A stretch of DNA of 64,000 nt from Hormiphora californensis. Its lineage: Eukaryota > Animalia > Ctenophora. Within the stretch, counting starts at the first letter, position 1. The number at the start of each line of letters is the position of its first letter. The position numbers and the translations under genes were made by a program. Of this stretch, positions 4,304 through 63,307 are shown in pieces. Where the stretch lies: NCBI GenBank assembly GCA_020137815.1, contig CM035353.1:5580001-5644000 (forward strand). Reading direction: 5' to 3'. The notes beneath the pieces were generated by a model. It had not been told where the DNA came from, searched no databases, and saw only the letters and a program-made list of their open reading frames with translations.

Positions 4304-7300
4304 TCAGATGCGGTCTGCGGCGCCATACAGTCTGTTTTTGAACGTAATGAAGGACTTTAGACATTTATTAGAGAAAATGGGGTGTGACCGGAAATAGTAA
4401 ATAAAAGGATTGCACGAGCTGTGCAGAGTGTAAAGAATAATAGAGAAAACGAGACAGCAGTAAAGATACAACGAAAACGCTCCGTTTGAAATGTTTGTCA
4501 GTGTCAAGCTAACCGGAAGAGCGTTACACTGCATGGAGCATGTTGTAAACATTCAGTAGGTTAGACGGTAACAAACACAAAATGTAAAACACAATCATCA
4601 TAGTGACTAAGGTAGAACTCTTGCATGACCGGTTTACCCTAAACAACCGTAACTTGCTACCAAATCGGGACTTTTTAATCCGTAAACCGGATTTAGTGGG
4701 AGTGCGTTTGATATTTTTACCACACACTCCTATTGCTCCAGCCGCCCCTTTTGAGTTGTTCCAGTGGTTCGGACTCCAACCTTTGTCACCACAATTGCTG
4801 TCCTCAATTAGAACGTCTAAACCCCCCGCAGTGGAGGATCTGTGGCCCAATTTGATCACATGGAGATCCAAATCTTCATTTCCTGCTACGTCCGGTGGAT
4901 CCTGGGGTGAAAGTGAGGCCGAAAGCACAGTTGATGCCCGTTTGCTTGTCCGACTGAGACAAGTTTCATCGCCTGAGAAAACTCTGGAGAATCTGTCAGC
5001 TACTTGCACGGTGCCGTTCCGCTGGGCCAACTTCACCACTACTAGGACACAGAGGATAAAGGTAGCGAGGAAGGGAGTCATGGACATGACATTTGTAACG
5101 ATGAAAGTAGCTTTTGATTCCATATCACTTAACTCGATGTGCTCCATGCCAAAATATCCAACAATCGGCACGTAATGGTATCCACCTGAAGATATATAAA
5201 GTCCAATTTGTGTATTTAAGGGACAATTGACACACTGAAAATGGTCGCGTGTGCCACCCAGATTTATGAAAACAGTTATTTGGGTCGATGTAAGGAGCGT
5301 TGTTAGGTGTAACAGTGAACAGACGGACACAAAATTTTATTGAACCCCCGCAATGCTGATTTCCAAACCCTGAATGGGGCCTGAATGATCTTTTTAGCAT
5401 GTGTGTGCTAAAAAGAGAGAGATAGAAAGAATAGAAATATTATGGCTTTTAGTGAGCCCATGATATACTCAATAAGTTTTACTTACCACGTTTGAAGAAA
5501 GGATACATGGTTGAAATGAATGGATAGAGCCAAGCCAAAAGGCACAAAGCAGAAAATCTGGATTTAGTAAGAATGCGCATCCTCTGAAATGGAAACCAAA
5601 CCGCGATAAACCTGTAATATGGGGAGGGGGATGTTGGTAATTAGAGTTAGATATAAACCTAATAGGGCGAGGGTCTGGTTCGTTAAATCAAATTTTATCA
5701 CCCACTTTTGTCAGGAATGGGCTCTCTGGCGGTGCCAGACTCCGTTTTGATGCACTCAGATCAGGTCGACACCGCCAGAGGGCGGAATCACACCAAGATC
5801 TTCGAAAGAATTGTTTCGACGCACCAAACTCAATCACACTGAAAAGTATGGTTGGTTCTTCACAGCAGGCGTTCAGTTGTTGTGAACGCCTGCTGTGCGC
5901 GGCGCATTGGCACGTGCATCTTGGGCGCTGACAGGCTTTCACATGTTGTAAAGTCGGATTTTTTGAAGTTGTCACCCCAAAATGACCGCGCGTGTGAAAT
6001 TTATCAATTTTGACGCGCATACCACACGTTAACATGTGATGTGACGCGCAAAAACATTCCGCGCACGAGAAGGGGGGGTGACAACTTCAAAAAATCCGAC
6101 TTTAACATATAGAAGCCTGCCAGCGCCCAAGATGCACGTGCCAATGCGCCGCGCACAGCAGGCGTTCACAACAACTGAACGCCTGCTGTGAAGAACCAAC
6201 CATACTTTTCAGTGTGATTGAGTTTGGTGCGTCGAAACAATTCTTTCGAAGATCTTAGTGTGATTCCGCCCAGACAGGGAATGAATGGACATTATTGATT
6301 CCTTTACCTGTCGATTGAGAAGACGAGAACAAGAAGAAGGGATGCTTCATTAGTGGTACTGGACACCCAACCTGAAATATATTAGAATGATGAGAAATAG
6401 AAATAGTTCCAAATGTCATGGTAAAATATAATGCACATGAGGAAGTTGTGTCAATAGTTCTCAATCAATTAACCAACTACTTAAAAAAGCTTTTATAAAA
6501 GCCTTTATAAAAGCTTTTAATAAAAGCTTTTATAAAGGCTTTTATAAAAGCTTTTTTAAGTAGTTGGTTAATTGATTGAGACCTATTGACACGACTTCTT
6601 CATAAAAGTTTTATGAAGTTCACTAACCGATAAAATCAGAGATGTATGTCCCATCCAGATCGTTCCCGCCAATAACCGGAGGTAGACTTCTTGAGTTAAA
6701 AAGTCCCGCTGAAAATTCATAAATTAATTAAACAGATATATCAATTAAGAAGATAACATCTTCTTATATTAATAGATATGATGGACAAAAGAAAAAAAGT
6801 GTGATCTATTTCGATTTTTTGTAGCTACCGTGTGGGGCAATAAAAATGCCCCCCCCCCCAAGTCTACCATAGTTCCAGATATCGTGGAGCGCTAAAATTT
6901 GGTATAGTAACTCTATGAGACAAATAAATAACTTGGCCAAAATTTCAGACCTCTAGCTCAAAATTCATTTTTTTGATAGGAATGAACATTGTCATTCATT
7001 CCAGGAAAAAATATTTTCCGGTCCAAAATTTAACAAATTATGTTTGGCTATCGATTTGCTTTCCAATGGGACCAAGATCAGCTAAATTGGACAAACACAA
7101 GAGACACAGTGTCATGTTGCTTTAAGTTAGTCAGGTCATGTGATCTTCACCGAATCGTTGAGTTTCCGGGATTGCTAATCGGTCCAATGGTATTTCTTAC
7201 CTGCGACAAACGGAACAACAATGATACATGTGAGCAGATCGGCCACGGATAACTGCATGAGGATTGAGGTGGTCCGTGTTTTGAACTGATTCTGTAGTAG

Positions 7301-7754
7301 TGCTAAATGAACTGTTAGCATACCGTTCGATACCGCCCTGAGAGAGAGAAAAGGGTTATTACTTTGAAATTACAATGTACAAATCTCAACATGAACAAGT
7401 ATGTACAGTCGGACCCCGATTTAGTGGCACCCTCGGGGGAAAGGGTTTTGTCCACTAAATCGGGGTGTCCACTAAATCGGGGTCCGACTGTACCACACTG
7501 ATCTACAATCAGCAGTATAGTACCAACTAGGTACTAACCTGTCAGAGCATTGTCCTGACCCTATTCTCATAGGATCTATGAGAATAGGGTCAGGCCAATG
7601 CTCTAACAGGTTAGTAGTTTAGAAAGTCAAAGCATTGGCAGCTGACAACTACTCACCCCAATATGCAAACAATAGAGCATATGATGCCACACACATAGTC
7701 AATAGAAGTGTAGTGAAACTGTATCCGCATGGTACTAGTATTAGTATCTGACAT
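4304..7754 (-). CDS. Orphan rhodopsin-family (class A) GPCR, 6 coding exons: 7754-7657, 7337-7201, 6708-6628, 6371-6308, 5611-5487, 5185-4304 (one +1 frameshift near 4535)
   Basis: Manual splicing with phase-consistent GT-AG introns gives MSDTNTST... TM1 (ILGAVSN), TM2 LSVADLL, TM3 SIDRFIAVWFP, TM4 LLAWLYP, TM5, a long ICL3, TM6 CLLP and TM7 SSCNPFIYYFR (NPxxY). Confidence 0.88.
5780..6271. mobile_element. Palindromic Harbinger-like MITE in GPCR intron 4
   Basis: Near-perfect arms of about 160 bp starting GGGCGGAATCACAC; 3-bp AGA TSD. Confidence 0.85.
5952..6101. mobile_element. Kolobok-like MITE at the centre of 5780-6271
   Basis: TIR AGTCGGATTTTTTGAAGTTGTCACCCC; flanks GTAA and TTAA. The same end occurs at about 46587, and a relative at 42919-43068. 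Confidence 0.75.
6437..6603. repeat. AT-rich near-perfect palindrome in GPCR intron 3
   Basis: Arms of about 83 bp with a 1-nt centre at about 6520, built from AAAAGCTTTT units. Confidence 0.9.
7406..7490. mobile_element. 85-bp Tc1/mariner-type MITE
   Basis: TA|CAGTCGGACCCCGATTTAGTGG...CCACTAAATCGGGGTCCGACTG|TA. Confidence 0.9.
7532..7616. repeat. 85-bp palindrome related to 4219-4302
   Basis: TACTAACCTGTCAGAGCATTG... / ...CAATGCTCTAACAGGTTAGTA with a 3-nt loop. Confidence 0.85.
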
Positions 7755-8464
7755 ATGGCAGCTAGCCGCTAGGAATATAATATAATATCAAGATATAAGT
7801 TGAGAGGTTTTGAAGGGAGGGCAGGGGAAGAATCAAGTACAGCATGGGTTGGAGATACTGGGGAAGTGAGTTCGGTTCTGGAGAAATTGAATTTAAGGTT
7901 GATACCGCGTTATTTTATTTAGCTGGTGGTTAATGAGTTTATCTCGATATGTTTGTCTGACAAGATTATGATTAATGAGATTCTAGGAAGTGTAGGAGGT
8001 TGTGGTTGGCCGAGAGACACGAGATATATCTAGAAACCATGGTTTGATAGTTATAAATTAGAAAACCCTAATTAGTGGAGGGGTGAATACCACTTATTTG
8101 GCCATATTAGGACGACATTAACCACATTGATAAACAAACCCCTCCCTTCGAACGAATTCGATCATGTTAAAAATATCCACGCAGACATGACGAAGAACTA
8201 AATGGTGATAAACTGAACTCACTTCCCCCTACCTGTTATCCAAACTTGGGAATAAAGAAAACAAAATAATCTAAAAGGTGTTTTACTCTACAATCTTTTA
8301 TTTACAAAATGCTGTACATATCACACACATTTACATCTTCGGAAGCATCTCATAAAGATACAAGGTGCATACACCATGGAGCAAGGTGCATGGAGGAAAA
8401 CTCTCATTATTCTCATTCGAGGATAATAATCATAGTCTTGTGCGGATCTCCTAGATCTCAGGGG

Positions 8465-37943
<29,479 letters not shown>

Positions 37944-38038
37944 TCTGGATCGTCACATACTGTCTATATATGAAGGATAAAAAGAAGTTAATATTTTGGA
38001 AACTGATTAAATCTTTCTAAAGAGGAAAAAAGATCAAG

Positions 38039-38044
38039 TTTATT
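38039..38044 (-). terminator. Poly(A) signal of LRRC74, about 75 nt upstream of the DNAH12 acceptor
   Basis: AATAAA on the minus strand, followed by a U-rich tract. Further copies near 38090 and 38131. Confidence 0.5.
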
Positions 38045-38225
38045 AAAAACAGATAAAATTTCAACGGCTTTACAATTGCTTTTTACAGTTTATTTACACA
38101 AATTGCTGATTTCACGCACACTGATTGTAGTTTATTGTTACTCAGTCTTTGAACAAATATACTCTCCTGAAGAGCTCTAATCACACCGACACAACTACAA
38201 AACAAATATAGTGCTACTATCCTGT

Positions 38226-39638
38226 TCATCCTGCAACATTACTATTATACCTCACCACACACTCATCCAACCACTTGGTCTGCTCCGTTTCAAGGAGGGC
38301 GGTATAGTTGACTGATCCCTTGTTCTCCCCGTCCATCTGGTCTATCAGCATCTCCATGTTGGTCTTGTCAAATGGAAGGTGGGCCTGCTGGAAGGCATCG
38401 AACAACACCTCCTTGCTTACCTCCATACTTTCCTCTTCGTCAAATCGTTTGAACACTTCCACCAGCTCAAAGTGCTTATTATGCTCCAGCCATTCTTTAA
38501 GAGTGGCTATGGGGTTAGGCTTCTTTCTTCCCTCTAAGTATGGCTGGTGGGTGACTTTTAGGTTCTCCAGTGTCGTCTTGGTTTCCTTTAGCGTATTCCA
38601 GAGGTCCTCGTCGACTCTGACATTTGAAATGTCAACGTGCTCAATAACCGTGCTACTGTTTTTACCGAAACTCTCCAATATTTGACATGCCCCAGCCGGG
38701 GTTATGGGATTAAATCCCACGTTAAAATGCTTCAAGCCCTCATTCCCCTCGACGCCCTTGGCAAGATACTTTGCACCTTCAGCTGTTATCCGATTATTGC
38801 TGATGTCTAACCACTGAATGATAGTGTTGTTTCGGAGTGCCTCGCCCAATGCCACTGCACCTTCATCGCCAAAACCGTTCCATGCGAGGTTTAGTTGCTT
38901 CAGCATGACGTTGTTTTTCAATCCATGGGCAACAGCGATTGCACCACGTCTTCTCAGGTTGTTCCATGACACATTAAGGAATTCCAGACTCTCGTTAGCC
39001 CCGATGGCAGGTCCTAGCAATTGTCCTCCCTTCTCCCCGATACAATTCTTACTGAGATCAAAGTGGGTCAACCGAAAGTCCTTCATAACATCCGTGAAAT
39101 GTTCAATGTCCTTGTCTGAAAAGCTGTTGCCGGAGAGAAACACTTCCTTGAGATTTACATTTGAATGCAGCATATCACCAAGAGATTTAGCACCTGCAGT
39201 ACCGAGCTTGTTTTCTCCCAAATCAAGAGTTGTGATGTAGCAGTTCTCACGTAGCATGTTAGCAATGTATTGTCCACCCTCGGCTTCTAACGCATTGTCG
39301 GAAAGGTTCAACTTTAAAACTGAGGTGTTATTGATGAGGGCTAAAGCGATGGCTTTTGTACCCTTTGGACCAAGGCCATGATGTGACATCTGGATTTCTG
39401 AAGACTGCATATTTCGCAGGAAGTAACTAACGGGTATGATCCCCATTGACTTGCATTGTGTCACATACACCTGTCGACCGGTTGTGTCATAACTGGTCTT
39501 TTCTTCTTCAATCTCAAGGTCAGTGTCATAGCCATCACTTGAAGGGGCAGGCGACCCAGAAGCAATCGGAGGAGGTTTTTCGATGGAAGATTTCGATTCC
39601 ACAGGATCGATGGTAATTGGTTCACTTACGTCTACCAT
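38226..39638 (-). CDS. LRRC74: Leucine-rich repeat protein, LRRC74A/B-like (RNI-like LRRs plus C-terminal EF-hand-like region), intronless CDS
   Basis: 470-aa ORF with repeated LxLSxNxL/I units, N-terminal YDTDLE...CKSMGIIPVSYFLR, and degenerate EF-hand loops (FDEEESMEVS, MDGENKGSVNY). Confidence 0.8.
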   Translation of the reverse strand: MVDVSEPITIDPVESKSSIEKPPPIASGSPAPSSDGYDTDLEIEEEKTSYDTTGRQVYVTQCKSMGIIPVSYFLRNMQSSEIQMSHHGLGPKGTKAIALALINNTSVLKLNLSDNALEAEGGQYIANMLRENCYITTLDLGENKLGTAGAKSLGDMLHSNVNLKEVFLSGNSFSDKDIEHFTDVMKDFRLTHFDLSKNCIGEKGGQLLGPAIGANESLEFLNVSWNNLRRRGAIAVAHGLKNNVMLKQLNLAWNGFGDEGAVALGEALRNNTIIQWLDISNNRITAEGAKYLAKGVEGNEGLKHFNVGFNPITPAGACQILESFGKNSSTVIEHVDISNVRVDEDLWNTLKETKTTLENLKVTHQPYLEGRKKPNPIATLKEWLEHNKHFELVEVFKRFDEEESMEVSKEVLFDAFQQAHLPFDKTNMEMLIDQMDGENKGSVNYTALLETEQTKWLDECVVRYNSNVAG

Positions 39639-40337
39639 CTAAAACACATATAAAATTGTTAATTAAAGTTGATCTATTGACTATTTCTCACTCATGATCT
39701 GTACATGTTTGTCCTGAAGACTGAAAATTTCTTATTTTGCCTTCGCTGCAAACAGCGCGAGCAATGGGCGACTGGCCCCAACCCATATGCAGTGTGCACT
39801 GTGCATCAGTGGCCATTATCGACACACCGAGTACTGAAAAAAAATCATGGCTGGCCGGACGTGATAAAAATTCAAATTTCAAAATGGAGGAAAGAAAGGA
39901 ACACGACGAACACAAATTTCAAAATTCAAAACTCAATTTTTTTTGAGTGCGCGAAAAACTTTTTATTTTCAAAATCTGGATTTCTTATTACGCGCAAAAC
40001 CAAAATTTACGCCGCGCACGCGCGCTTGGTTAAGTTTTTGCAAAATGCCGAGCTCGAAATTGAAAATTTTTAAAAGTTTAAAAAAGGTTTCGGTTCTCGT
40101 TTTTTTTAGCTGTTTTCACACCCCCTGACCGTGGCTATTGACCCTGCTAATAGCCCCGAACACACAGGGAAACGCTAGGCCTGAGGCTTTTCTCCAACGA
40201 CCAGCGAGAAGCGTTATCCTTGCCCCTTGGCGATGGAGAAGGCGACAAAAGGCCTCCAGGCCATATTAAATTTTACGTAGATACACAGTGACTGTTGATT
40301 GGAGCTCATGTTACTAAAATTTCCGTTCTAGAAACTC
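39639..40337. promoter_or_regulatory. Putative bidirectional promoter / outron region between LRRC74 and GPR107
   Basis: 699-nt head-to-head gap, with acceptor-like TAG at each edge (39640-39639 minus, 40330-40331 plus). The promoter is inferred from position only. Confidence 0.5.
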
Positions 40338-47583
<7,246 letters not shown>

Positions 47584-48194
47584 GGTGTTCAGGATCTGTG
47601 AATAAAGACATAATGGGTTGGTCAATGCAGTAGGCCTTATTACAAAGCTGGTCCGGGTAGAATTGTGTCCATTCCTAGACTTTCTGATTTTTCATTTCTC
47701 TCTGTTGTTTTCCAGTGTGAAAGTTTGTTATTGATTATCTGAACAACTGGCACGGATTTTTTGCTGAATGTTAGCTGTAAAATTTGTACCTTTGCGTTAA
47801 ATATTCTAAAAACAGATTTTACCTGTTGCATATTTTGGGTTAAAAATTTGCTGTAAAAAGGATAACATGAGATCATTATCTATAACTTCTCGAGTGGACG
47901 AGTTGTCTATTCTGTTTGTTTATTTGTAGTGAAAGACCGATATTTAAAATCTTGTGTGTTCCAGCTTGTAATTGTCCAACATAGAGTTTTCCTGTATCCC
48001 ATCATATCCCACCCTGAGTAGGACTGTTACTGCATTTTATTACATGTCTCTCTTTAATCCTGAATTCCACCATTCACCATGCCCCTAAAATTTACCGTCC
48101 TCTCCGCCCAATATAGGATATATATATCAATCCTGACCGTTACTTTATATCTCCCATGACTCCCCCCTCACACCCCCCCCCCCTATTTAGCACA

Positions 48195-48383
48195 ATGTCA
48201 GATGATAATGGTAGCACAACAGGCAGTGTAGCGGACATCCCTGAGGCAGGAACTCCCCCTACACCGACACTGAAGGAACGTCTCATGCCAGCTAATCCCA
48301 TTGGGTTTACTATCTCTGTCGTGGTATCACTCGTGGCCATTCTCGGATTTATCTTTGGTCTTCCGTGTCCTGATACCGAATAG
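48195..48383 (+). CDS. Candidate 62-aa single-pass membrane microprotein
   Basis: MSDDNGSTTGSVADIPEAGTPPTPTLKERLMPANPIGFTISVVVSLVAILGFIFGLPCPDTE*. One hydrophobic segment of about 21 aa; pyrimidine tract plus TTTAG 4 nt before the ATG, as in the neighbouring genes. Confidence 0.6.
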   Translation: MSDDNGSTTGSVADIPEAGTPPTPTLKERLMPANPIGFTISVVVSLVAILGFIFGLPCPDTE

Positions 48384-48662
48384 AGGGGCTGTTGGGCTAC
48401 TGAGTCGAGATTAGAGGGGTTGTTCTGATCAGAGGGGACTCAAGAAAGTCAGAAGTCGCTGTGTACATATTATATTTTATCGCTCAATAATGCTATCACA
48501 TGAGTTTAACTGTTTTTAACCAGAAGAGACCTTATTGTTTTGACTTGGCTGTCATTTATCTGTATATTGTGCCGTTTATTATAAAACTTTTTTAACAAAA
48601 CATCCGTGTCTTATGACTTCCGGTCCGAGGGTCTTAATGTGGGCGAGTATACTCTCTCTCTA

Positions 48663-48694
<32 letters not shown>

Positions 48695-48705
48695 TATCTT
48701 TCGCA

Positions 48706-48748
<43 letters not shown>

Positions 48749-49264
48749 CTATCTATCTTTCACATTTTCTCTCTCTTCCTCCATTACTAAACCGAGCACC
48801 ATTGTCTTTTTAGAGCGAGTAAACAAGTGAGAATAATGGCAGTTGAATGTTAGCGTCTCTTCTTTGCCGACGTCTTGTCCCTGCTACTCTGAAACTAGTG
48901 AATCACCACCACCCAGTATTTTGTAAGTCACTACTTTGTCCTCACATTTTGTAAGTCACAACGTTCTCTATACTCCTCATTCGAAGCAGCTGGTGTTCTG
49001 TTGAGGGGGTGATCCCTGTAGTGATCTCACGTGGTTCGAAGTTTGGCATAGTCAGGGATCACCTCCTCAACATGTCTCTACCACGGACGGTGCCATCAGC
49101 CCTATACAGCTGATCCAGAGGCTGGTGTTCTCTTGGCTTTGAATATAATGATCTAGCAATTCCAGATCTGTACTAGCTTGTCTTCTCTCTTTGTTTTGCT
49201 AAACTTACAATCACTTTTCAATCACGACCCGTTCTTTTTAATTATTAAACTCTCAGCAAGGGCC

Positions 49265-52200
49265 ATGACCAGTGAAGGAACCGATCCACCCATCAGCAAG
49301 AGTGCCGCCAAGAAACTTGCCGCTAAACAAGCGAAGGAAGCAAAGAAGGCTGAAGTGCAGGCCAGGTACAAAACAATTGTGTTACAGTGGTCATCCGACA
49401 TAATTGTCACAGCTCGACAAGAAATTCGACCTGAAATCCGACGTAGAATGCGCCGTGCATTCGTAGTGAGAGAGACATAAAGACTAACGAGAGAGAAGAA
49501 TTGAAGCGTGACAGCATTTGGTCGACTTTCAACAGGCGTTCATAACTGAACGCCTGCTAAGTTGAAGAACCAACCAAACTTTTCTCGTCGAATTCCACGT
49601 CGAAGTTCACGTCGAGATATGGCAATTATGTCGGATGACCACTAATATCTCTAATAGTATATCGAACCTATTCAGCGTGTGACATGTGTATAGAAAGTAA
49701 CCCTAACAACATCTAGTGGATATATATAAACATTGTCTCGTTCCTTCTCAGGCTGAAGGCAGAAGCAGATGCCCGAGATGTTGACGACTACAGTAAGGAT
49801 AAATACGGGAAACAACCCATCTGTACAAGTAGTGAGAAAACGGGACGAAAATGGGTCGAGGTACATGTTGTTTGTTTTCTGAACTTGACCAAATTTTATT
49901 GGACATTAAATGGGTTCTTCTACAATAAAACCCGTCTGCTCATTTTGTACAGCTGGAAGGAGAAACCTAAACTTCCTCATTAGTTGGGATTTATTACAAA
50001 GTCACCCATTTACGTTGTAAAAGGGGCACTCGTACCATCTACGGAAGGGTAATTTCGTTACCAAGGTATTTTATAAAATGCCCTACTGGTAGAGGATCTA
50101 CCTCTGCGGAACATTTGTCTGCTGTAATCAATTGTGTTTTATTTTCAGGTAGAGGATCTAGATACGTCCATGGCAGGGGAGGAGGTGCTAGTAAGGGGCA
50201 GGGTCCACCTTAGTCGTGTAACAGGGAAACAGTGCTTCCTGAAACTCAGACATCGTTATTACTCAGTACAGGTTAGTGGCTAGTGCTTCCTCAGACATCG
50301 TTACTATTCTGTACAGGTAAGAGAAACACTTTCACGACGGGGTGTTGAGGTTTCCCTCGGTTTGGTTATTTCATCCGTGAGCTTTCAGCTTGCACAGAGG
50401 GGTAATTTCATTACCAATCCCTTGGTAACGAAACTAACTAAAGTGTGCCCTACTAAGTACTATCAATATAGACCAGTCATATGATGTCGGTTTTGGACCA
50501 AAAAAAACATAATTGATCTAAATGTGATTCCACTTCTAGGGCACTCCAATAGGTCCCTAGAACCACCAAAAAAATTTGTCACTCTTCATCAAATGAATAA
50601 ATTCGGTTTTTGGGCCACGCCCTTTTACCTGTATTTTCAGTCATGTGGTCAAAACTATAAACCATCTTAGGAAACGAGTAGAGAAGAAATTAAGGGCACT
50701 AAAGTGTGTAGCGTCCTCGCATTAGTGGGGGTAGGTGCCGGAATTAAGTCCCTATCTCATCTGGTTAATTAGATAATTGGATAATTAGGTATGCGCATAA
50801 CCATTTTTTGGCTATATGGCTATAGCCACTTAGGAATGGTTTAGAGACTTTTCACTGGTGCCATTTTGTAGGCAATGGCCAAGTTATGGGGGGTCGACGT
50901 CGGACTTTTAAGCTCTATCTCCAACCGTTTAGCCGTTATTTCGATTCAAAGGTGCTGAAAATGAGCAAAAATCGGGCTTTTTACCGTTTTTTGCTCATTT
51001 TCAGCACCTTAAAAGCCAAATAACGGCTAAATGGTTGGAGATAGAGCTTAAAAGTCCGACATCGACCCCCCATAACTTGGCCATTGCCTGCAAAATGGCA
51101 CCAGTGAAAAGTCTCTAAACCATTCCTAAGTGGCTATAGCCATATAGCCAAAAAATGGTTATGCGCATACCTAATTATCCAATTATCTAATTAACCAGAT
51201 GAGATAGAGACTTAATTCCGGCACCTACCCCCACTAATGCGAGGACGCTACACACTTTGGTGCCCTTAATTTCTTCTCTACTCGTTTCCTAAGATGGTTT
51301 ATAGTTTTGACCACATGACTGAAAATACAGGTAAAAGGGCGTGGCCCAAAAACCGAATTTATTCATTTGATGAAGAGTGACAAATTTTTTTGGTGGTTCT
51401 AGGGACCTATTGGAGTGCCCTAGAAGTGGAATCACATTTAGATCAATTATGTTCCCTATCATGCATCATATGACTGGTCTAATAAACTACAGTCTACAAT
51501 TTGTTTTTCCGGCAAACAGCAGATATAATCAAATGTACATTGTACCCTGTCAGATAGTGTACGCAGTTGATGAAAAGATCAGTAAACAGATGATAAAGTA
51601 TGTTGGTGGGTGCCCTAAAGAGAGCATTGTCGATGTTCAGGGTGTGGTGGTGAAGGCAGATGTGCCCATTGAGAGTTGCAGCCAGAAAAACCTCGAGTTA
51701 CAAGGTTCGTTGGCAGGAAATACTGGTCCCTGATTGGCTGATAACCAGTCACGTGACCTAAATAACGAGTTCTGATTAGTTGTTTACTTGTGTCGGTCGG
51801 TTCCTGTTCGTTGGGGATTAGTTAAATTTAATTTCTCGGTACATGCTCAATCCAATTTTTGGCAAAGGTTGGTGCATGAAGTATGAACACGTGTAATTCC
51901 TTGTAAACATAGCTTCTACTCCCCGGCAACCCCCCCCCCCCCCCCCCCCCCCCCCAGGTATGACGTTCCACGTAGTGTCTGAGTCGGAGCCCCAACTGCC
52001 CCTACAGATTGATGATGCCAGCCGACCAGTTGGAACAGAGGGAGCAGGACCGATTGTTAATCAGGACACTCGGCTGAATAACAGGATTCTTGGTTAGTAG
52101 CCGTTGTTATCACTGGGTTTGCTTGATCATAATTTGGACCCGATTTGGATAGCTCGAATAATTATTTGGCTAAATTAACCTGGTTATTTAGCTCAGAATA

Positions 52201-55200
52201 ACTGAAAATACTAATTATCCGAGTTATATTATTATATCTGAGTATTGAGTAAATATATATTTATTGTCTTACCCTCTCTCCCCCCTGGTAGACCTGAGGA
52301 CACCCACAAGTCAGGCGATATTCCGAGTGGGCCATGGTGTCGTGGAACTATTCAGGGAGTACCTCTCTGCCAATGGTTTCACAGAGATTCACACCCCTAA
52401 GATCATCTCGGCTGCTAGTGAGGGCGGGGCTAATGTTTTCAAGGTAATATTAGGCTGTCCAGTATTGATTGTCGTTGGGCTTTTATGGAAAAATGGTTTG
52501 AGATAGAGCAAAATGGACTTCACCACCGTTTTTCTCACGCGATTTTAGATCGGAATATCATGCTTGGTATCGGTATGTGGCCGTTCTCGGTTCCCAGCAG
52601 GCTATTTTCTCTACGCCACTCTTGTTGCCGCTGCATGGGGTTACCAATGTTTTTTAAACGCTGCTGGAAGAAAACTGGTACAGTTTCTTTAGCTCCCGTA
52701 GTGCTCAATCGATAGACAATCGTCTAAGGATGAGGTATGTATGCGATTTGGGTCTTTACGCGTTCACTAATAACCTCTAAAACAGTAAATGTAACACGAA
52801 AAAGCGAAAAAGTTTGGCCCGTTTTGGGGACATGTTCAAAAACGTCAATTGGTCACTTTAAAAGTCAACCAATCACATAATTGGCTTCACTACGTCTTAG
52901 AACTTACTTAGAACTATCTTTTACTGCAAAGTTTTTTTATTATAAGCCAATCCTGATGAGACCCGGAAGTGAAAGTTTCTAATTTTTACCAAAACTTTTT
53001 GGAGGCCCGTTGCTCAGTGACAAAATAAAGATAGGATGTTTTATTACATCTTGAACGATAGGTAATTGTCCAATGAACAAGCTTGATGCAAAAAAACATC
53101 ACTCCGGTACCATTTTTAAGAAGTACAGCAGCTTTAGTACTAAAACTCGAAAATCGCGATTTTCCAAATGCAGCGGCAACAGGAGTGGGGTAGAGAAAAT
53201 AGCCTGCTGCGAACCGAGAACGGCCACATACCGATACCAAGCATGATATTCCGATCCAAAATCGCGTGAGAAAAACGGTGGTGAAGTCCATTTTGCTCTA
53301 TCTCAAACCATTTTTCCATAAAAGCCCAACGACAATCAATACTGGACAGCCTAATACTAGTGACATTAATATCTTACTATTCCCCGTGCCTGGCTGACAT
53401 GACACCATATATGGGCATCACGTGACACACCATATATGGGCATGTCTCTAGTGAGGGTGGGGCTAATGTTTTCAAGGTAATATATTAGCGACATTAATAT
53501 ACAAACACTTAGTGACTACTCTTTGTTAGTGAAATACATACTAATAGTCCGGTAAAATGATGTTAGCGTTTCCAAGCTCGTGTAGATTTGTTCACAAAAC
53601 CATTTTCGATGTCAATACAGGGTGGTTCAGAAACATGGAGCCACTGTATTGACACATTAGTTATCTCAAAATGGCTCCATGTTTCTGAACCACCCTGTAT
53701 ATATGATATAGCTACGGTAGCTTTATAAGCTACCTGGCCTTTGTTTTTGCAAACAAGCGCCATGTGGTACACTCACTTTACACGTCATCACAGCTTAAAT
53801 TATTGTTTTAATTCTAAAGTGTGTGGTTTCTCATTACACGTTATCATAGCTGACGATCTTATATAATATTCTCAATTCTGTGAAACATATGTCTGCCTAA
53901 ATATCCGTGTTTCGATCTTATATAATCTTACGGTTCTCCTCAGGTTTCCTATTTCAAGGGTAACGCCTTCCTGGCACAATCACCCCAGCTGTACAAACAA
54001 ATGGCAGTGTGTGCAGACATCGAGCGGGTATTCACCGTGGGAGCAGTGTTTAGGGCGGAGGACAGTAACACACATAGGCACCTGTGTGAGTTTACTGGAC
54101 TTGACATCGAAATGGCATTCAAGGAGCATTATCATGAGGTATGGAGGTGTTACCATATATGGAGGTGTTACCTAACCATATTATATGGAGGTGTTACCTA
54201 ACCATATATGGAGGTATTACCTAACCATATATGGAGGTGTTACCTAACCATATATGGAGGTGTTACCTAACCATATATGGAGGTGTTACCTAACCATATA
54301 TGGAGGTGTTACCTAACCATATATGGAGGTGTTACCTAACCATGTATGGAGGTGTTACCTAACCATGTATGGAGGTGTTACCTAACCATATATGGAGGTG
54401 TTATATTACCTAAACATGTATGAAGCCTGAATGAAGGTATAATTCACACATGTGTACCTGATTTTATAGAAAATTGTTATGAAATCGAGATCTAATGTAC
54501 ACATTTCCAGTGAAATCATTTGTTTTCCAGGCACTGACAGTGATTGGTGATATGTTTATCTCCATGTTCAAGGGTCTTCAGAAACGTTATGCCACTGAGA
54601 TTGAGATTGTCAACAAGCAGTTCCCTGCAGATCCATTTAAGTTTGTTGAGCCAGGTGTGTTATTTGATTTCTACACTACTCGCCAGTGTTATACTGATAG
54701 TAGGGTCAAGAAGTTACCCCTCTCTCGCCAGCGCGTGAAGGTCGCGAGGCGACATGATGGGTTTTCAGTATATAAAGTCGAATTTTTTAATCAAGGGACA
54801 GGGGGCCGCGCATTCAGAGAGGTCGCGCGGCGTTGTATTTGCGCGTGATAATCGAGATCAAGTTCCTGGCAATCTTAAGACTTTAACCTAACAGCGTTGG
54901 AAAGATAATTTTAAGACCTTTTCAACGCAACCAAGATCAAGTCTTTATCTTATCAGGAACAGGAGATATGAGCGAAAACGTTTAGCACGCGCAAAAAGAC
55001 TTTTGTAAATGCGCGGCCCCCTGTCCCTCGATTTAAAAATTCGACTTTATACCCTGCTAACTTAAATAACCCGCCAGCGGCGAGAAGTCCCACTGGCGCG
55101 CTCTCAATATACAGCCAGTCCAGCGGCAGATTATTTCCCACTGGCTGGCTGTTTATTATTAACTCCTATGTTATATTCAAAGTGTGTGTAAATGATCAGT

Positions 55201-56867
55201 TCTTACTGAAATACAGAGGGAACACTGTTTGCAAGAGTTACACACTGCATTGGAGAGAAAGAAACAACACATTCCGTCAATTTCTCTCTCTTTATCTCCC
55301 CTTTTGTTTCACTATCTCAATTCCTCTGTGTTATGTCTGGCATGCCCCATATCTTGTTATTTCTTTCTCTCTCTCCTTAGTAACTGTTACCAAACAATAT
55401 ACACTCAATTGAGAGATGTTTTTGACTGTTTCTCAGTTCTCTTTGTGTGTTTTGATTAGTGTTCTCTCTCTTGTTAGTGTGTAATACTTGAAACAAACAA
55501 CTAAAGCAGGGTATATAACCCATAAACTCTGACCAATGGCACGTTATTGGTTTAAACCCCTCCGCCTCTCCCTCGGCTACGCCTCAGGATCGTCGTCGTG
55601 ATTTAAACCAGTTTATCCGCCACTGGCGGATAAACTACAGCTACCTTCTCCCAGCGGCGCGCTGGGAGAAAGGTATCTGAAATAACGTGCCAGTGGCCAG
55701 AGTTTATGCCTCATTTAACCAAACTGATGGTATAAGGGTCACTCGATCAATAGTACAGTATAAAATAGTATCGCAACTTGTATACCAGTTTTCCATCCTT
55801 ACACATCTTAAAACTCCCTCCTTAGCGCTGGTGTTGAACTACCCGGAGGCCATATCCATGCTACGGGAAGGCGGAATAGAGATTGGTGATTTTGATGATC
55901 TCTCAACACCTAACGAGAAGTTCCTTGGAAAGTTGGTTAAAGCGAAGTATGATACTGATTTCTACATCCTTGACAAGTACCCCCTGGAAGTGAGACCCTT
56001 CTACACCATGCCATGTCCCCATGATCCCAAGTAAGTAAAGGAGAGGATTAGAGAAATAAAGGGAGAGAGATAAATTAGTAAGTTGCTGTAAAACCAACCG
56101 TCATGAAGATAGAGCCATTGATTTCAAAACTTGTCTCCTTTTTGGTACAAGTATTGGCTAACAGTTGTGTGCTGCACAATGCTGCATCAATGTTTTACAG
56201 TTATCACTTTTCACACAGTTTATTTTGTGTTGCAAAACCGACCCCCTTGATACCCTCGTGGGATGGCGTGTTTTTCATTTACCCTGATTACACCATTGAT
56301 CTCAACAGATACAGTAACATTTAACAATTACATCATACTAATTAATTAACTACACCATTGTTCTCTCCAGATACAGTAACATTTAGCCATTACATCATAC
56401 TAATTAATTAATTAATTAACTACACCATTGTTCTCTCCAGATACAGTAACATTTAGCCATTACATCATACTAATTAATTAATTAACTACACCATTGTTCT
56501 CTCCAGATACAGCAACAGCTACGATATCTTTATGAGGGGAGAGGAGATTATGAGTGGAGCTCAGAGGATTCACGATCCAGCCCTACTTGAGGAGCGAGCC
56601 AAGGTCCACGAAATCGAGCTGGAAACAATTCGATCTTACATCGATTCCTTCAAGTAAGACACGGTCCAATTTCCCCGCACACAGCATGAGAGTGTAGATT
56701 ATTTTGAATAATGTTCCCTTACCCACCCTCCCTCCTTCAGGTTTGGTTCCTCGCCCCATGCTGGTGGCGGTGTCGGGGGTGAGCGAGTTCTTATGTTGTT
56801 CCTCGGTCTGGATAACATCAGGAAAACTAGCATGTTCCCTCGAGACCCAAAACGGTTGACTCCTTAG
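49265..56867 (+). CDS. DARS1: Cytoplasmic aspartyl-tRNA synthetase, 11 exons (approx. 49265-49365, 49752-49860, 50149-50271, 51554-51704, 51958-52091, 52292-52443, 53944-54138, 54531-54654, 55826-56030, 56507-56653, 56741-56867)
   Basis: [58 protein letters not shown] and C-terminal [10 protein letters not shown]. Confidence 0.96.
49386..49643. mobile_element. MITE in DARS1 intron 1, related to 5780-6271
   Basis: TIR AGTGGTCATCCGACATAATTG; shares the internal CAGGCGTTCA..ACTGAACGCCTGCT..GAAGAACCAACC motif. Confidence 0.75.
50469..51481. mobile_element. Near-fully palindromic 1-kb element in DARS1 intron 3
   Basis: TAGACCAGTCATATGATG...CATCATATGACTGGTCTA; inner portion homologous to 41334-42540. 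Confidence 0.92.
51714..51806. mobile_element. 93-bp hAT-type MITE at a DARS1 splice donor
   Basis: CAGGAA...TTCCTG ends; 8-bp TSD TTCGTTGG (51706-51713, 51807-51814). Confidence 0.88.
52450..53354. mobile_element. Mariner-like non-autonomous element in DARS1 intron 6
   Basis: TIRs of about 185 bp, TA|TTAGGCTGTCCAGT...ACTGGACAGCCTAA|TA. Confidence 0.9.
53618..53697. mobile_element. 80-bp Tc1/mariner MITE
   Basis: TA|CAGGGTGGTTCAGAAACATGGAGCCA...TGGCTCCATGTTTCTGAACCACCCTG|TA. Confidence 0.9.
54140..54415 (+). repeat. 23-bp minisatellite starting at the DARS1 intron 7 donor
   Basis: (CATATATGGAGGTGTTACCTAAC) repeated about 11-12 times. Confidence 0.92.
54776..55046. mobile_element. Kolobok-like MITE
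   Basis: TIR of about 38 bp, AGTCGAATTTTT.AATC.AGGGACAGGGGGCCGCGCATT. Confidence 0.8.
55048..55515. mobile_element. Dispersed repeat with short TIR; other copies at 29104-29242 (truncated) and about 30660-31100
   Basis: TATACCCTGCT...AGCAGGGTATA ends and cross-matches within the window. Followed by a hairpin-rich segment (55521-55708) also seen near 31105-31250. Confidence 0.7.
56289..56516 (+). repeat. Tandem repeat (62-70-bp unit) containing the DARS1 exon 10 acceptor
   Basis: TACACCATTG.TCTC..CAG|ATACAG.AAC occurs four times. Confidence 0.92.
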
Positions 56868-57139
56868 AGAAAGAAAGACTCTCACCCGCACACAGAAAAC
56901 TGACCCCTAATAAACGTTTTGTTGTGTTTGACGCTATGTATTTAGTGACTAGGGTAATTTAGGGATTTTTAAACCTTAATTGGTTCTCCATTTATTTGTC
57001 CATTTATTAGGTTTTAACTTTTCCACAACACCGTGCGTTTTTTTTCTCTGTCCAATCCATAACCCCCCCCCCCCCCAACATCATGCCCCCACCCAACACC
57101 CTGGCCCCTCCCTGTAATTTCAACACTGTTTTAGATCAC

Positions 57140-58342
57140 ATGGTGCGTGTCTCCTTTCTCCACCCTGATCTCGGTATCGGAGGAGCGGAGAGACTGGTCC
57201 TTGACATGGCCCTCGCCCTCCAATCTCGCGGTCATGACGTCACTGTGTTCACTGCACACCACGACCCATCCCACTGTTTCCCTGAAACGGCCGATGGAAC
57301 ACTGCGTGTGGTTGCTAAACTAGACTGGCTACCCCGGACAATATTTGGAAGATGCTTCGCTCTGTGTGCCTTTATCAGGATGATCTTCCTAGCTGTGTAT
57401 GTGAGATGTTTCGTTAGGTCAGATGTTTACGTTGTGGATCAGGTGTCACTTTGTGTGCCCGTTCTCAAGTTTCTATCCCGGACCCGGGTCTTGTTCTACT
57501 GTCATTTTCCCGATCTTCTCCTATCGACGGACCGGTCCGGTGCGCTCAAGCGGCTTTATCGTGCACCCCTTGATTGGTGTGAGGCGTACACTACCAAGAT
57601 GAGTGATAAAGTGGTTGTCAATTCAGGGTTCACACGAGCAATTGTTCAGCAGACTTTTGGTGGAGCTGAGTGTGATTATGATATCCTGTATCCCTCTCTA
57701 AACACGGAGACATTCGATGATAGTAACGGATTTGAAATTGTCACTGCTCCCAATCCTCCTTCCAGATCGTGTGTCTTTCTTTCCCTGAACCGGTACGAGA
57801 GAAAGAAAAATATTGGTCTGGCGATCGGGGCGTTACGGTACGTTAAATCAGTGTGTGGTGCGGAGGAATGGGAGAAGTGCCACCTTATTATCGCAGGGGG
57901 ATATGATACGAGGGTGAGTGAAAATGTTGAACACCATAGAGAGTTGGTCTTGTCTGCGGCTGATATTTCAGATCACGTCACCTTCCTTCGCTCAATTGAT
58001 ACCTCAACTAAACTATCCCTACTGCATTCCTCCACTGCCCTTCTCTATACGCCATCCAATGAGCATTTTGGTATTGTTCCCGTGGAATCGATGTATTGTG
58101 GAACACCTGTAATTGCAGTCAATAGCGGGGGACCCACAGAGTCAGTTGAAGATGGTGTCACGGGATGGCTGAGAGAACCTTCAGAGAAAGAATTCGGAGA
58201 TGCAATGTTGGAATTTTTAAGGGACCCCAAGTTGGCGGAGGATATGGGAGGAAAAGGACGTAAACGTGTACAGAAAATGTTTTCTTTTGAGTCATTTAGC
58301 GACCAGTTAGATGACTATGTTAATATTTTGAGTAAGTTTTAA
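57140..58342 (+). CDS. ALG2: Alpha-1,3/1,6-mannosyltransferase ALG2 (GT4), intronless
   Basis: FLHPDLGIGGAERLV, FYCHFPD, SLNRYERKKN and NEHFGIVPVE motifs. The likely start is ATG 57140, after TTTTAG; AATAAA at about 58390. Confidence 0.95.
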   Translation: MVRVSFLHPDLGIGGAERLVLDMALALQSRGHDVTVFTAHHDPSHCFPETADGTLRVVAKLDWLPRTIFGRCFALCAFIRMIFLAVYVRCFVRSDVYVVDQVSLCVPVLKFLSRTRVLFYCHFPDLLLSTDRSGALKRLYRAPLDWCEAYTTKMSDKVVVNSGFTRAIVQQTFGGAECDYDILYPSLNTETFDDSNGFEIVTAPNPPSRSCVFLSLNRYERKKNIGLAIGALRYVKSVCGAEEWEKCHLIIAGGYDTRVSENVEHHRELVLSAADISDHVTFLRSIDTSTKLSLLHSSTALLYTPSNEHFGIVPVESMYCGTPVIAVNSGGPTESVEDGVTGWLREPSEKEFGDAMLEFLRDPKLAEDMGGKGRKRVQKMFSFESFSDQLDDYVNILSKF

Positions 58343-59859
58343 ATTAATTTCACCACGTAATGATCAATTTAGTTTTCGTCAACAGTTTTAATAAATGAGT
58401 ATTATTTCTGATCAATTGTCACCAAAACAGGGCACGATCGCTCTGGAACGAGAGGGCACAATTTGTAGCGCGCGGGACGGTTTCTCTAAATAAAGTACAA
58501 CTTGTAGGCACTTGTGTCACGAGCGTTCACCGCGGAACCTCCTACGTGGAGTTGGTGTGGTAATGATGCTATGCTGAATGTCAGATGTTTTGAGATCATC
58601 TTATCAGTCATTATTTACTCAATGAAACAGCTGTGGACTCTGCGGATGTACCTCTGTGCCCTGCTCTCTATTTTCCCCAACTACTAAATACTGAGTTTTT
58701 GCGGACGCGGCTTTGTGCTTTTTACTGTGCAAGTAGCTACCGCGCGGCGCGTAATTCAAAATTTGATTTTGGAGCACACGTCGTCTGCAGACGTCTGCGG
58801 AGTTTTGAAATTTAGATGTTTTGAGTGTCACTTGTCAGCACAGAGCGTTCACGCTTTTTAGGAATTAGGCCCTACCTGTTGGCTGTTTCGGCACTAACTG
58901 AAGAGAGTTGCACGTTCTTCATTATGCCAAATGTCGATTTACCGGGCTTATGTCTGGCGGCGTTAGACCCCGATTTGATTCAAGAGTGTTGGAGCCCGAG
59001 TTTGAGCGAGTTGGTTTCTGAGAGAATTGTTTCGTTTCTTTGGTGATTTTGGACCTCCTCGGCTAAGTTAAAAAAGGAAAAAAAAAAAAAATCCCCCACC
59101 CCCATTGAAAAAAAAGAGCCAGGATAAAAGACAGAAAAAGAATTGAAAAAAAAAAAAAAAAAGAAAAAACCTCCCCTCCCTTCCCCTGCAGACTGACTCG
59201 ACAATGACTGTAGTTTACCCTGTGACCCAACGTCTGACATTATGGTGCCATTTATTGCATAGTCTTAGATGGTGCAATAGATGGTATCAGCTAGCATCTG
59301 GAGGTTCAAACTGACTGTTGAAACCACCTCCGGTGCGCCCTATTTTCAGATATATCGAGACCGTGATCCTGATATAATCCGTGATCCTGATATCCATATC
59401 GATTGATGATATCTTCGATCTTATACTTACTGAAGAGCATGGATTGATCTTCATTGATTAGGGCAAGTATATAGTTATTGACTCTCGAACCTCGTATCTC
59501 CAGTTCCATTAATTCAGTTCTCCTTAGTAGCATACCCTTCTTGACAGTTTACTGTCCACTAACACGTAACCCTAACACCCATAAGTGGGCCGTTTCTCTC
59601 CCCTTTTTCAGTAGTCAGGTTTCCTCAAGATTCTAAAGATTTTAAGATTCCTATTTCCATACATCATCACGGGGCACGGACATATTCTCTAGGATAGGAG
59701 AGAGTGGAAGTATAAGGGAAAGGAAACGATAAATGTACATCCCTAAAACAATTATGCAATGTTTATTGATCCCGGGATAATGACAAACTGTGTGAAATTT
59801 GTTAATTTTTGTTTGTAATTATAATGGTTGTACGTGGTTATAATTGAGAATAGAGTGTG

Positions 59860-61330: not shown

Positions 61331-62063
61331 CTAAGGAAACTCACCAATGTAGTCACCAAATCCGGTCTATTCAAATAAAACATAACGCTACCACCAAAAT
61401 GATTCTATACCAACGGTAGTTTAAAAGTGCACACTGGCAAAGTCCTGATCTCATCAGGTAGAGTCTGTTGAAACCATCACGGCAGAAGCAAATCCGCAAC
61501 TAGCAAAAGCGCAATACAAACCAAGTCACTAGCCTTTGGACTGGCCCCCCACAGCTAGATCGGCAAAACAAAAAAGAACAGCGCCACCTGGGTCGACTCG
61601 ATCATAGCTGCTATGACGACTCGATGGACCGAACCCTACCACTGTACCCCGATCAGAGGTACACGCCTGGAAACAGGCAGGTGGTAGTGCACAAATGGTG
61701 CCTCATCATGGTGAAGATGAACGCGCACTATCGTTCGGCGATTTAACCTATTCTGGGGAAACCCAGTACCGTAAGACTGGTACAGTAGTACTAGTGCGCC
61801 TGCTGTTGGTGGTGACCTTCATGCTCTTTATCGAAACAGTTCTCGTCTGTCGACTCGTGTCTTCCAATGGAAGGGTACTACTAGGGGGTACCGGGGAAAC
61901 CCGGCGCTACCTTGGTGGGACCTGACCGGGAGATCGAGCACGGCGCTCTGGGCAGCCATGTGTGTTGGTAACCTGAGGAGAGAATTGTGAAATCAAGGGA
62001 ACGCTGCTCCCCAACGACAGCAAGTGGGTGGAAGTACGGGAGGTACACGACACACACACACAC

Positions 62064-63307
62064 CTCGGTGTCAAGGAAATGCCTATGTGGCAAAAACCCT
62101 ACTGAACCCGGCAGCTCTGGTCTCGTACACTGCTATTCCTGCAATACTCACTATCATGCAGACTGCGTTGGCCTTAATTTCCTCTCTATTGCAAAAGGGT
62201 CCATCCCTATTACCGATGGTGTTTATAACGCCCCTGGTTGGTCTTGCCCTGTTTGTCTAGTTTTCGCCCAACTGATGCAACCCGACAGTGCATTATTCAA
62301 TAAAATAGCTGAAAACGCTGCCCGCATCTTCGCTTCTACCGCAACTGCTCCTACTAAAACCGTCACCCAGCAACACACTCGAGCTGAAAACGCGCCTACA
62401 GACATTGCTACTCCCCAATGTAACAGAGCAAACTACTCGGATGCTTTGAACATCAATACACCTGCCACAAGTGCAATTGATTCAACTGCCGCAGCTCCGC
62501 AACCCCAAGGTCATCCCCAGGCTAGAACTAAACAAACCCAGCAACAAACCCCCACCCAATCACAACCCCGTGAGAGAGTGCATAAGCTGCTTATTTCTTG
62601 CGGTGTTAACGACTCCAGTAAAACAGCCAAGTCTGTAAGTGACTGCCTTGCCGAGACACCTATGCTGTTCCTTGACACAAAAAAATGCTGCAGAGATCAA
62701 GATTGGATTCCCTGAATCAACTAACATTAATGCAGTAATACAGCTAGTCACAGAGGCGATACCCAAAGATGCAACAGTTACCACTCTATCCTCCACTGCT
62801 AAAGTGACTATACTGAATGTACCTGAAAACATTGAATCCTTGTCAAACGACCAAGCTAAGAATAAAGTGCTAACCATGCTCCAACTCAAAAACCCATGGC
62901 TCAAGACTGAAGAGGTAACCATCGTGTACATCAAAAGTCACTACCGGAATAAGGATAAATGTACCATTGGCCTGCGTCTACCGATTCCCGCACAACAGCG
63001 TCTCCTTGACGCCGGTAAAATATACTATGCAACATCCCGACTTAATGTTGTGGAACGTTTCCACATTCCACAGTGTATCAAATGCCACCGTTTCAACCAC
63101 AGGACCACTGAATGCACCAGCTCAGTACTAGTTTACAAACTTTGTGGAGATAATCACGATGTCAAGGATTGTACCGATAGGAAAAAACTGTTTTGTATTA
63201 ACTGCAGTAGTTCTGATGCATTCAAATCCGAGGCCAGCCGTCACCACAGTGGAGATAGATTGTGCCCTGTCCGCCAACAGTTGCAGCAGTTACATTCAAA
63301 AAACTAG
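62064..63307 (+). mobile_element. LINE ORF1 with N-terminal PHD finger and C-terminal CCHC knuckles; one slip at the A7 run 62679-62685
   Basis: CLC...CYSCNTHYHADCV...WSCPVC; CIKCHRFNHRTTEC; CINC...H...C; ends SKN*. Confidence 0.85.

Follow-up and report, generated by a model that had tools for sequence, protein, structure and literature searches.

Several animals carry operons whose mRNAs are separated through the trans-splicing of a spliced leader (SL). In C. elegans about 100 nt lie between the 3′ end of an upstream mRNA and the acceptor of the downstream gene (PMC7986045, PMC1488885); in tunicates the spacer amounts to zero in Ciona and to 23-30 nt in Oikopleura (PMC1488885). The Hydra RFC140-flp operon has been proven with reporters, which showed that its spacer contains no promoter and that its acceptor is required (PMC3273482). 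In the chaetognath Paraspadella gotoi SL addition is widespread, there is no operon-specific leader, and operons were called genome-wide at distances below 250 bp (PMC12460157). In animals that have a single leader type, operons are distinguished by spacing, and according to a 2021 survey ctenophores had so far yielded no report of operons or polycistronic mRNAs (PMC7986045).

Here we analyze a 64-kb stretch of the genome of the ctenophore Hormiphora californensis (assembly GCA_020137815.1, contig CM035353.1, positions 5,580,001 to 5,644,000, forward strand; hereafter the window), which has 43% G+C and contains intron-rich animal genes and many repeats. Seven genes in it form two divergent blocks: LRRC74, DNAH12 and a G protein-coupled receptor (GPCR) gene on the minus strand, and GPR107, a small open reading frame (ORF), DARS1 and ALG2 on the plus strand. 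SL trans-splicing in ctenophores was reportedly described by Derelle in 2010, as cited in the Hormiphora paper. The results show SL trans-splicing with a ctenophore-type leader at two AGs of the locus, 40331 and 48190. On balance they also favor outward transcription of the locus from a central promoter, LRRC74 and DNAH12 probably sharing a single precursor RNA that yields two mRNAs by cleavage.

Spliced leader addition and the start-site acceptors

RNA data consisted of assembled contigs from seven runs, six of them from mixed marine samples, of which five (X1 to X5) were compared with the window. X4 represents a related species that is about 94% identical to the window. The intervals compared were 35990-41040 (X1 to X4) and 47000-50300 (X1, X3, X4 and X5). 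Five of the seven start-site AGs lie inside them; outside are two AGs (7769 and 57134) and three gene 3′ ends (DNAH12, DARS1 and ALG2). Three stretches (37880-38017, 39708-40214 and 47888-48109) are uncovered, and they provide no evidence of absence. The features concerned are the following.

38226..39638, minus strand: LRRC74-like gene, first gene of the minus block, one coding exon of 470 aa with LRR Pfam matches
39639..39640, minus strand: acceptor AG of LRRC74, a likely SL site
39641..40329, no strand: divergent gap, likely a bidirectional promoter plus two outrons
40330..40331, plus strand: SL acceptor of GPR107, with leader tails in X1 and X4
40338..47583, plus strand: gene of GPR107/108 type that opens the plus block, with weak CAND6-7_N and GOST_TM matches
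48189..48190, plus strand: SL acceptor of the small ORF, an internal gene, with a leader tail in X1
48195..48383, plus strand: small ORF, predicted 62 aa with one hydrophobic stretch, transcribed and SL-led
48814..48922, plus strand: non-coding DARS1 exon, cis-spliced to 49257 in X4, GTAAGT donor at 48923
49255..49256, plus strand: DARS1 AG, a cis acceptor in X4 and possibly an SL site too
49265..56867, plus strand: DARS1 of the aspartyl-tRNA synthetase type, 522 aa encoded in 11 exons, open frame, tRNA-synt_2 match

At the GPR107 acceptor, contigs from two of the four runs end at 40330 and continue into a leader whose last AG coincides with the genomic AG. The leader tail is 19 nt in X1, on a contig without mismatches to the window, and 24 nt in X4; both match the 3′ end of the published H. 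californensis SL, and the X4 tail together with the AG is identical to its final 26 nt (PMC8527503). Such a leader on contigs that agree with the window at 99% or better in itself marks the organism as a ctenophore. At the small-ORF acceptor (48190) an X1 contig with one mismatch to the window carries a 21-nt leader tail (one of four runs), which demonstrates that this internal gene is trans-spliced. The tail, at 48189, is one base short of the published leader near the contig end, and this may be a variant or an error. A leader family is thus common to a first gene and an internal gene, and the trans-splicing that the original prediction had claimed from the letters of the window is found on RNA contigs at both sites.

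The other three AGs inside the RNA intervals comprise two with indirect signs of a leader (39639 and 49256) and one that is uncovered (37964). An X3 contig alignment ends at the LRRC74 AG, 39640, with three unaligned letters. A metagenome scan with LRRC74 yielded one locus among 202 pattern matches. The mRNA-like contig L001, from another ctenophore, contains the LRRC74 orthologue (77% identity at the amino acid level), ends in a short A run and opens with a 26-nt remnant of a ctenophore-type leader, 26 nt upstream of the start codon. A short upstream ORF lies behind the L001 leader.

At the DARS1 AG, an X5 contig aligns from 49255 with six unaligned letters. An end at 49255 fits a leader that itself ends in AG, unlike the cis-spliced form. 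Cis-splicing to an upstream non-coding exon, which the original prediction had named as an outcome that would speak against it, was found at 49256 in the relative X4, where a contig (depth 25.5) begins at 48822 and runs to about 48922, at which point it is joined to 49257. Of the proposed leader sites, 40331 and 48190 stood and 49256 proved to be at least partly a cis acceptor in a relative, a result that does not do away with trans-splicing. The non-coding exon contains two upstream ATGs. It is preceded by a candidate SL acceptor, TTTTAG at 48813 (7.1 bits), 9 nt upstream of the X4 contig start, with which the gap behind the small-ORF stop would shrink to 428 nt or less; no leader at 48813 was seen on the RNA contigs of 47000-50300.

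All seven YAG acceptors are present upstream of the start codons at the coordinates claimed, each behind a T- or pyrimidine-rich tract, with AG-to-ATG distances of 0 (LRRC74), 20 (DNAH12), 14 (GPCR), 6 (GPR107), 4 (small ORF), 8 (DARS1) and 5 nt (ALG2). The recomputed stop-to-start gaps also agree (282 and 710 nt on the minus strand; 611, 881 and 272 nt on the plus strand), as does the central start-to-start gap of 699 nt; across the co-oriented gaps stop-to-acceptor distances are 261-872 nt. The acceptors were scored with a weight matrix trained on 49 hand-annotated cis acceptors of the same window, taken from exon chains with open frames, several of which are confirmed by RNA joints or loose contig ends. 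The seven score 4.9-12.4 bits on this matrix. Of 2,034 other ATGs, taken after masking low-complexity and degraded stretches, 44.7% have a YAG within 0-20 nt, but in only 7.3% does such a YAG reach 4.9 bits, so that seven out of seven would be expected by chance with a probability of ~1e-8. The presence of such acceptors does not, however, serve as the operon signature for which it had been taken. Among Hormiphora long reads, 56% or more carry an SL (PMC8527503), and the first gene GPR107 and the LRRC74 of a relative are SL-led as well. Ordinary single genes of this phylum should accordingly have an acceptor ahead of their starts.

The LRRC74-DNAH12 junction and the central gap

The best evidence for a shared precursor comes from the junction of the first two genes of the minus block, which comprises the following features.

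38039..38069, minus strand: LRRC74 mRNA 3′ end region, defined by contig ends from three runs of three studies
37965..38038, minus strand: candidate intercistronic stretch, 74 nt, 49% T, upstream of the DNAH12 AG
37964..37965, minus strand: DNAH12 acceptor AG, 8.2 bits, SL predicted
8465..37943, minus strand: DNAH12, axonemal dynein heavy chain with dynein Pfam domains

In X4 the LRRC74 contig stops at 38039, with 13 A behind it; in X2 and X3 the contigs stop at 38064 and 38069. AATAAA signals are present at 38136, 38094 and 38044. The ends are 74, 99 and 104 nt, respectively, from the DNAH12 AG at 37964, and 21-51 nt from a second AG at 38017, which is the stronger of the two (13.3 vs 8.2 bits). 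The mature mRNAs are separate. No GTRAGW donor is present in the LRRC74-DNAH12 gap upstream of 37964. Short spacing between the 3′ end of one gene and the acceptor of the next, co-oriented one, by which operons are recognized, is thus found here, at 74-104 nt. Co-transcription of the two genes is moreover plausible, because LRRC74A, a protein of the nexin-dynein regulatory complex (N-DRC), and DNAH12, inner arm a, belong to the same 96-nm axonemal repeat (PMC11779644). Together these data make an LRRC74-DNAH12 dicistron likely. The polycistronic transcription that had been proposed for both blocks is well supported at this junction, and may extend to the other four, where the spacing is looser.

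The name LRRC74 is the earlier reader's and fits the LRR matches; no search gives it directly. The best PDB match of the protein is 9fqr_Km (473 aa, E 7e-83), whose file label (tubulin) does not fit. For DNAH12, P0121 is 79% identical to exon 1 from query residue 8 onward and has DNAH12 as its own best PDB match (E 2e-101). The start codon is confirmed by this alignment, which begins at residue 8. A full HMMER search with exon 1 gave 252 matches and a word-based search none. Between the AG and the start codon lies an in-frame stop: the first ATG, at +5, runs straight into a stop (ATG TGA), the true start codon lying at +20. This mini-ORF (37954-37959, minus strand) is in frame with the main start. 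Exon 1 has +1 breaks at 36855 and 36677, and both are likely assembly errors because contigs of the relatives (X3 and X4) lack them. The last exon (8465-15381, minus strand) is a single reading frame of 6.9 kb and the rest of the gene is in small exons; a coding block between the exons at 26731 and 22018 seems to be missing and probably lies in degraded sequence.

The central gap differs in composition from the five co-oriented gaps. Its 689 nt contain 34 CpG (observed/expected 1.17), six CGCG, five TTTGAA-type hexamers and 28 A/T runs, and each of these counts exceeds those of all 137 overlapping 689-nt windows of unique intron sequence (~20 independent). It is not a repeat, and no RNA contig lies on 39708-40214 in any of the four runs. 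In the five co-oriented gaps, CpG observed/expected is 0.42-0.62, with 55 CpG in 2,700 nt (p 6e-5, pooled, vs the central gap). One E2F-like site is present in the central gap, which is unremarkable as 10% of the intron windows have one. The composition fits a single bidirectional promoter in the central gap and none in the five others. As to the bidirectional promoter of the original prediction, it is thus borne out that the central gap alone among the gaps is CpG-rich and RNA-free, and from this we infer promoter function.

Accordingly read, polymerase would start within 39641-40329 and run outward in both directions, and the leader would replace the outrons of LRRC74 and GPR107. On the minus strand polymerase would pass the LRRC74 poly(A) site into DNAH12. 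Cleavage at the LRRC74 3′ end would be coupled to the addition of an SL at either 37964 or 38017, and this addition would provide the DNAH12 mRNA with its cap. Genes in first and in downstream position would draw on one leader family, like those of tunicates, Hydra and chaetognaths. Polycistronic transcription is probable at some of the plus-strand junctions too, but each has space for a promoter of its own.

Several observations weigh against this reading. First, contig ends are weak evidence for mRNA 3′ ends: the X4 poly(A) is that of one contig of a related species, with a depth of 5.8, and follows directly behind an AATAAA, an odd place, so that internal oligo-dT priming may be its source. 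Second, a promoter within the LRRC74 coding region or 3′ untranslated region (UTR) would look identical. Third, the stretch 37880-38017 is without contig in all four runs, so that the DNAH12 AG is uncovered and an SL on it unseen; an SL on ALG2 and GPCR is likewise unseen, their AGs being outside the RNA intervals. Fourth, as first genes carry the SL, its addition to monocistronic transcripts is evidently a normal event here, and none of the contig pieces listed for the two RNA intervals bridges two genes, contigs being prone to drop rare forms. Finally, the central gap contains no RFX X-box consensus. Stretches rich in CpG and CGCG occur also in repeats and behind ALG2, which makes composition a weak test for a promoter, and ctenophore regulation leans heavily on distant loop anchors (PMC12221973).

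The alternative that survives best is that the locus contains no operons. Each gene would have its own promoter and a short outron, the genes would simply be tightly packed, and the DNAH12 promoter would lie inside the 3′ part of LRRC74. Besides the leader on first genes and on so large a share of the long reads, this is in line with the predominance of monocistronic genes among the SL genes of other animals (PMC1488885), with the at least 200 nt left by four of the five gaps, and with the ordinary non-coding exon of DARS1 in X4 and the lack of a bridging contig. What it accommodates poorly is the LRRC74-DNAH12 junction itself, as 74-104 nt hardly provide space for a promoter plus an outron, and the five gaps, which differ from the central gap in CpG, CGCG and A/T runs. 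We therefore consider it possible, though clearly less probable than the shared LRRC74-DNAH12 precursor.

The plus block and the other features of the window

On the plus strand, contigs of the GPR107 3′ UTR cover 47589-47703 (X3) and 47686-47838 (X1), so that this UTR likely reaches at least to 47838, at most 350 nt ahead of the small-ORF AG. The names GPR107 and DARS1, taken over from the earlier reader, fit the domain matches; no search gives them directly. Three introns of GPR107 and the first two coding introns of DARS1 are supported by RNA joints. GPR107 has a single-base frame break within 45385-45505; a 28-nt 'exon' at 45574 proved false and was dropped. The small ORF has no Pfam match and no homologue was found; it is a candidate ctenophore micropeptide. 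The end of the block is as follows.

56868..57134, plus strand: DARS1-ALG2 gap with AATAAA at 56909, TTTAG at 56945 and acceptor at 57134, all read from sequence only
57140..58342, plus strand: ALG2 mannosyltransferase, one exon, 400 aa

The DARS1 AATAAA ends 218 nt upstream of the ALG2 AG, for a predicted spacer of about 200 nt. ALG2 is 52-62% identical to the 120 matches listed, which are ALG2 wherever specifically named. Behind it, a unique stretch (58343-59042) contains 39 CpG and 7 CGCG with no gene identified alongside, and could be a promoter or a loop anchor.

The acceptors near start codons differ from intron acceptors in two respects. Six of the seven end in TAG, as do 13 of the 49 in introns (p 0.005), and a following G, which 34 of the 49 have, is absent from all seven (p 0.0007); the sole CAG among the seven is the DARS1 site, which is used in cis in X4. 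The difference between TAG without a following G and CAG followed by G is a possible sequence code for trans vs cis splicing. In addition, TTTAG is found 15-35 nt past AATAAA in three of seven cases in the gaps vs two of 79 elsewhere (p 0.003). The three sites, 38017 (minus), 8271 (minus) and 56945 (plus), are 22, 26 and 31 nt past the signal, at the expected cleavage point. All these features were picked post hoc, and their p-values are therefore optimistic. The two patterns suggest that some of the true junctions may be located at the cleavage point, as in Ciona.

Carried to its full extent, the outward transcription that we favor would become the original prediction in its entirety: complete three-gene and four-gene polycistrons from one bidirectional promoter and no internal promoter. 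In the strongest form of this model the junction acceptors would be the TTTAG sites at 38017, 8271 and 56945, and perhaps the one at 48813, giving almost spacer-free junctions of the Ciona type, and the AGs at 7769 and 49256 would serve introns of the 5′ UTR in cis. CpG is scarce in all five gaps, the TTTAG sites lie 22-31 nt past three of the seven AATAAA signals in the gaps, GT donors are present upstream of both 7769 and 49256 (the one before 49256 being used in X4), and the internal small ORF carries the SL. However, the TTTAG pattern was chosen post hoc, U-rich sequence is expected past any poly(A) signal, and its control among terminal signals consists of three only (0/3). Moreover, the X4 poly(A) is at 38039 rather than 38017, GPR107 and the small ORF have no TTTAG-type junction between them, and the GPCR gene stands behind a 30-kb cilia gene with which shared regulation is not evident. 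Taken as a whole, complete polycistrons in both blocks appear unlikely, although they form part of what the favored reading allows.

Far less probable is a locus without trans-splicing, in which every AG is an ordinary cis acceptor belonging to an intron of the 5′ UTR. This is what DARS1 does at 49256 in X4 and what the GPCR gene could do from a donor at 8222, and it may hold for such single genes. As a general explanation it is refuted by the non-genomic leader at 40331 and 48190; the leader on the LRRC74 orthologue and the absence of a GTRAGW donor from three of the five gaps argue in the same direction. Least probable of all is a leader cis-spliced as a shared first exon from an upstream genomic SL copy. 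In its favor, the Hormiphora genome is reported to hold 718 copies of the leader, and some first exons look shared (PMC8527503). Against it, that paper reads the shared exons as likely mapping artefacts, no leader copy was found on either strand of the 64-kb window with up to three mismatches allowed, and a donor for GPR107 would have to lie over 40 kb off, beyond an antisense dynein gene. No Rfam family was found in the window.

The remaining features are the GPCR gene, which is the weakest member of the locus, and several elements.

4304..7754, minus strand: rhodopsin-type GPCR gene, acceptor AG at 7769, weak 7tm_1 match (E 0.0015, under the Pfam cut-off)
8223..8270, minus strand: possible 48-nt non-coding first exon of the GPCR gene, between TTTTAG at 8271 and a GTGAGT donor at 8222, a post hoc proposal from the letters alone
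17328-18874, 50506-51453, 24300-25340 and 41334-42540: inverted-repeat (fold-back) elements within introns, arms of 264-512 nt
61972-64000, plus strand: LINE-type element, a PHD-finger ORF followed by an endonuclease ORF

DNAH12 AATAAA signals lie 533 and 150 nt upstream of the GPCR AG. The GPCR frame is open for 448 aa to a stop at 4524, with the seventh transmembrane segment in the next frame; the last exon is broken near 4524-4550, so that it takes a +1 shift to arrive at the stop at 4304. The assembly, a draft, is degraded in homopolymer-rich stretches at about 22150-24250 and 29950-31950, which look like poor read ends, and has single extra bases in coding exons. An exact direct repeat of 300 nt, at 27657 and 29240, is part of a larger duplicated element.

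Comparison with described spliced leader operons

SL trans-splicing in ctenophores was already known; what is new here is a partly supported operon candidate in a ctenophore. No later report of ctenophore operons was found in the literature, to which Derelle 2010, the Hormiphora supplement and subscription papers, all outside its scope, may add. The available text of the Beroe and Mnemiopsis genome papers contains neither 'operons' nor 'trans-splicing', and that of PMC10282587 and PMC13498776 nothing further on ctenophore operons. We advance the following wider reading tentatively, as three propositions that would have to hold jointly and that we think somewhat doubtful in combination: SL-resolved operons would be a regular feature of ctenophore genomes, with divergent blocks transcribed from one promoter; the locus would hold a functional cilia operon, of an N-DRC LRR protein and an inner-arm dynein; and junction acceptors would be TTTAG sites at the cleavage point, unlike intron acceptors, which are mostly CAG followed by G. 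If so, many annotated 'promoters' of downstream ctenophore genes would be splice sites, and the assignment of promoters and enhancer loops to genes would change, since the main text of the paper on ctenophore loops mentions neither trans-splicing nor operons (PMC12221973). The junction would also offer a tool for the expression of two genes, as the Hydra operon has done.

The locus resembles C. elegans operons in its ~100-nt spacing, in the U-rich spacer and in the combination of unrelated genes in a unit (PMC7986045, PMC1488885). It differs from them in that there is no evidence here of an SL2-type leader, the first and the internal gene sharing a leader family with one base differing at a contig end. 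A single leader type shared by first genes, downstream genes and genes on their own is instead as in tunicates, and TTTAG acceptors at the predicted cleavage point in three gaps are as in Ciona (PMC1488885). Unlike Ciona, the only mapped poly(A) site (38039, in a relative) is 21 nt from the nearer AG and 74 nt from the farther one.

The Hydra RFC140-flp operon, also from a non-bilaterian, has a stop-to-acceptor distance of 417 nt with a T-rich tract, a distance that falls within the range of 261-872 nt found here; that operon was proven with reporters, whereas the present locus is known from sequence and RNA contigs (PMC3273482). By the chaetognath criterion of less than 250 bp LRRC74-DNAH12 would be called an operon, and DARS1-ALG2 is predicted to be (PMC12460157). 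The chaetognath calls are genome-wide, and ours concern one locus in which the DNAH12 site is uncovered and its SL unseen. Finally, the leader is the same as the published H. californensis SL (PMC8527503). The main text of that paper contains neither 'operon' nor 'polycistron'; in comparison with it, the present locus adds an internal gene that carries the leader and the mapped 3′ end of an upstream gene beside a downstream acceptor.

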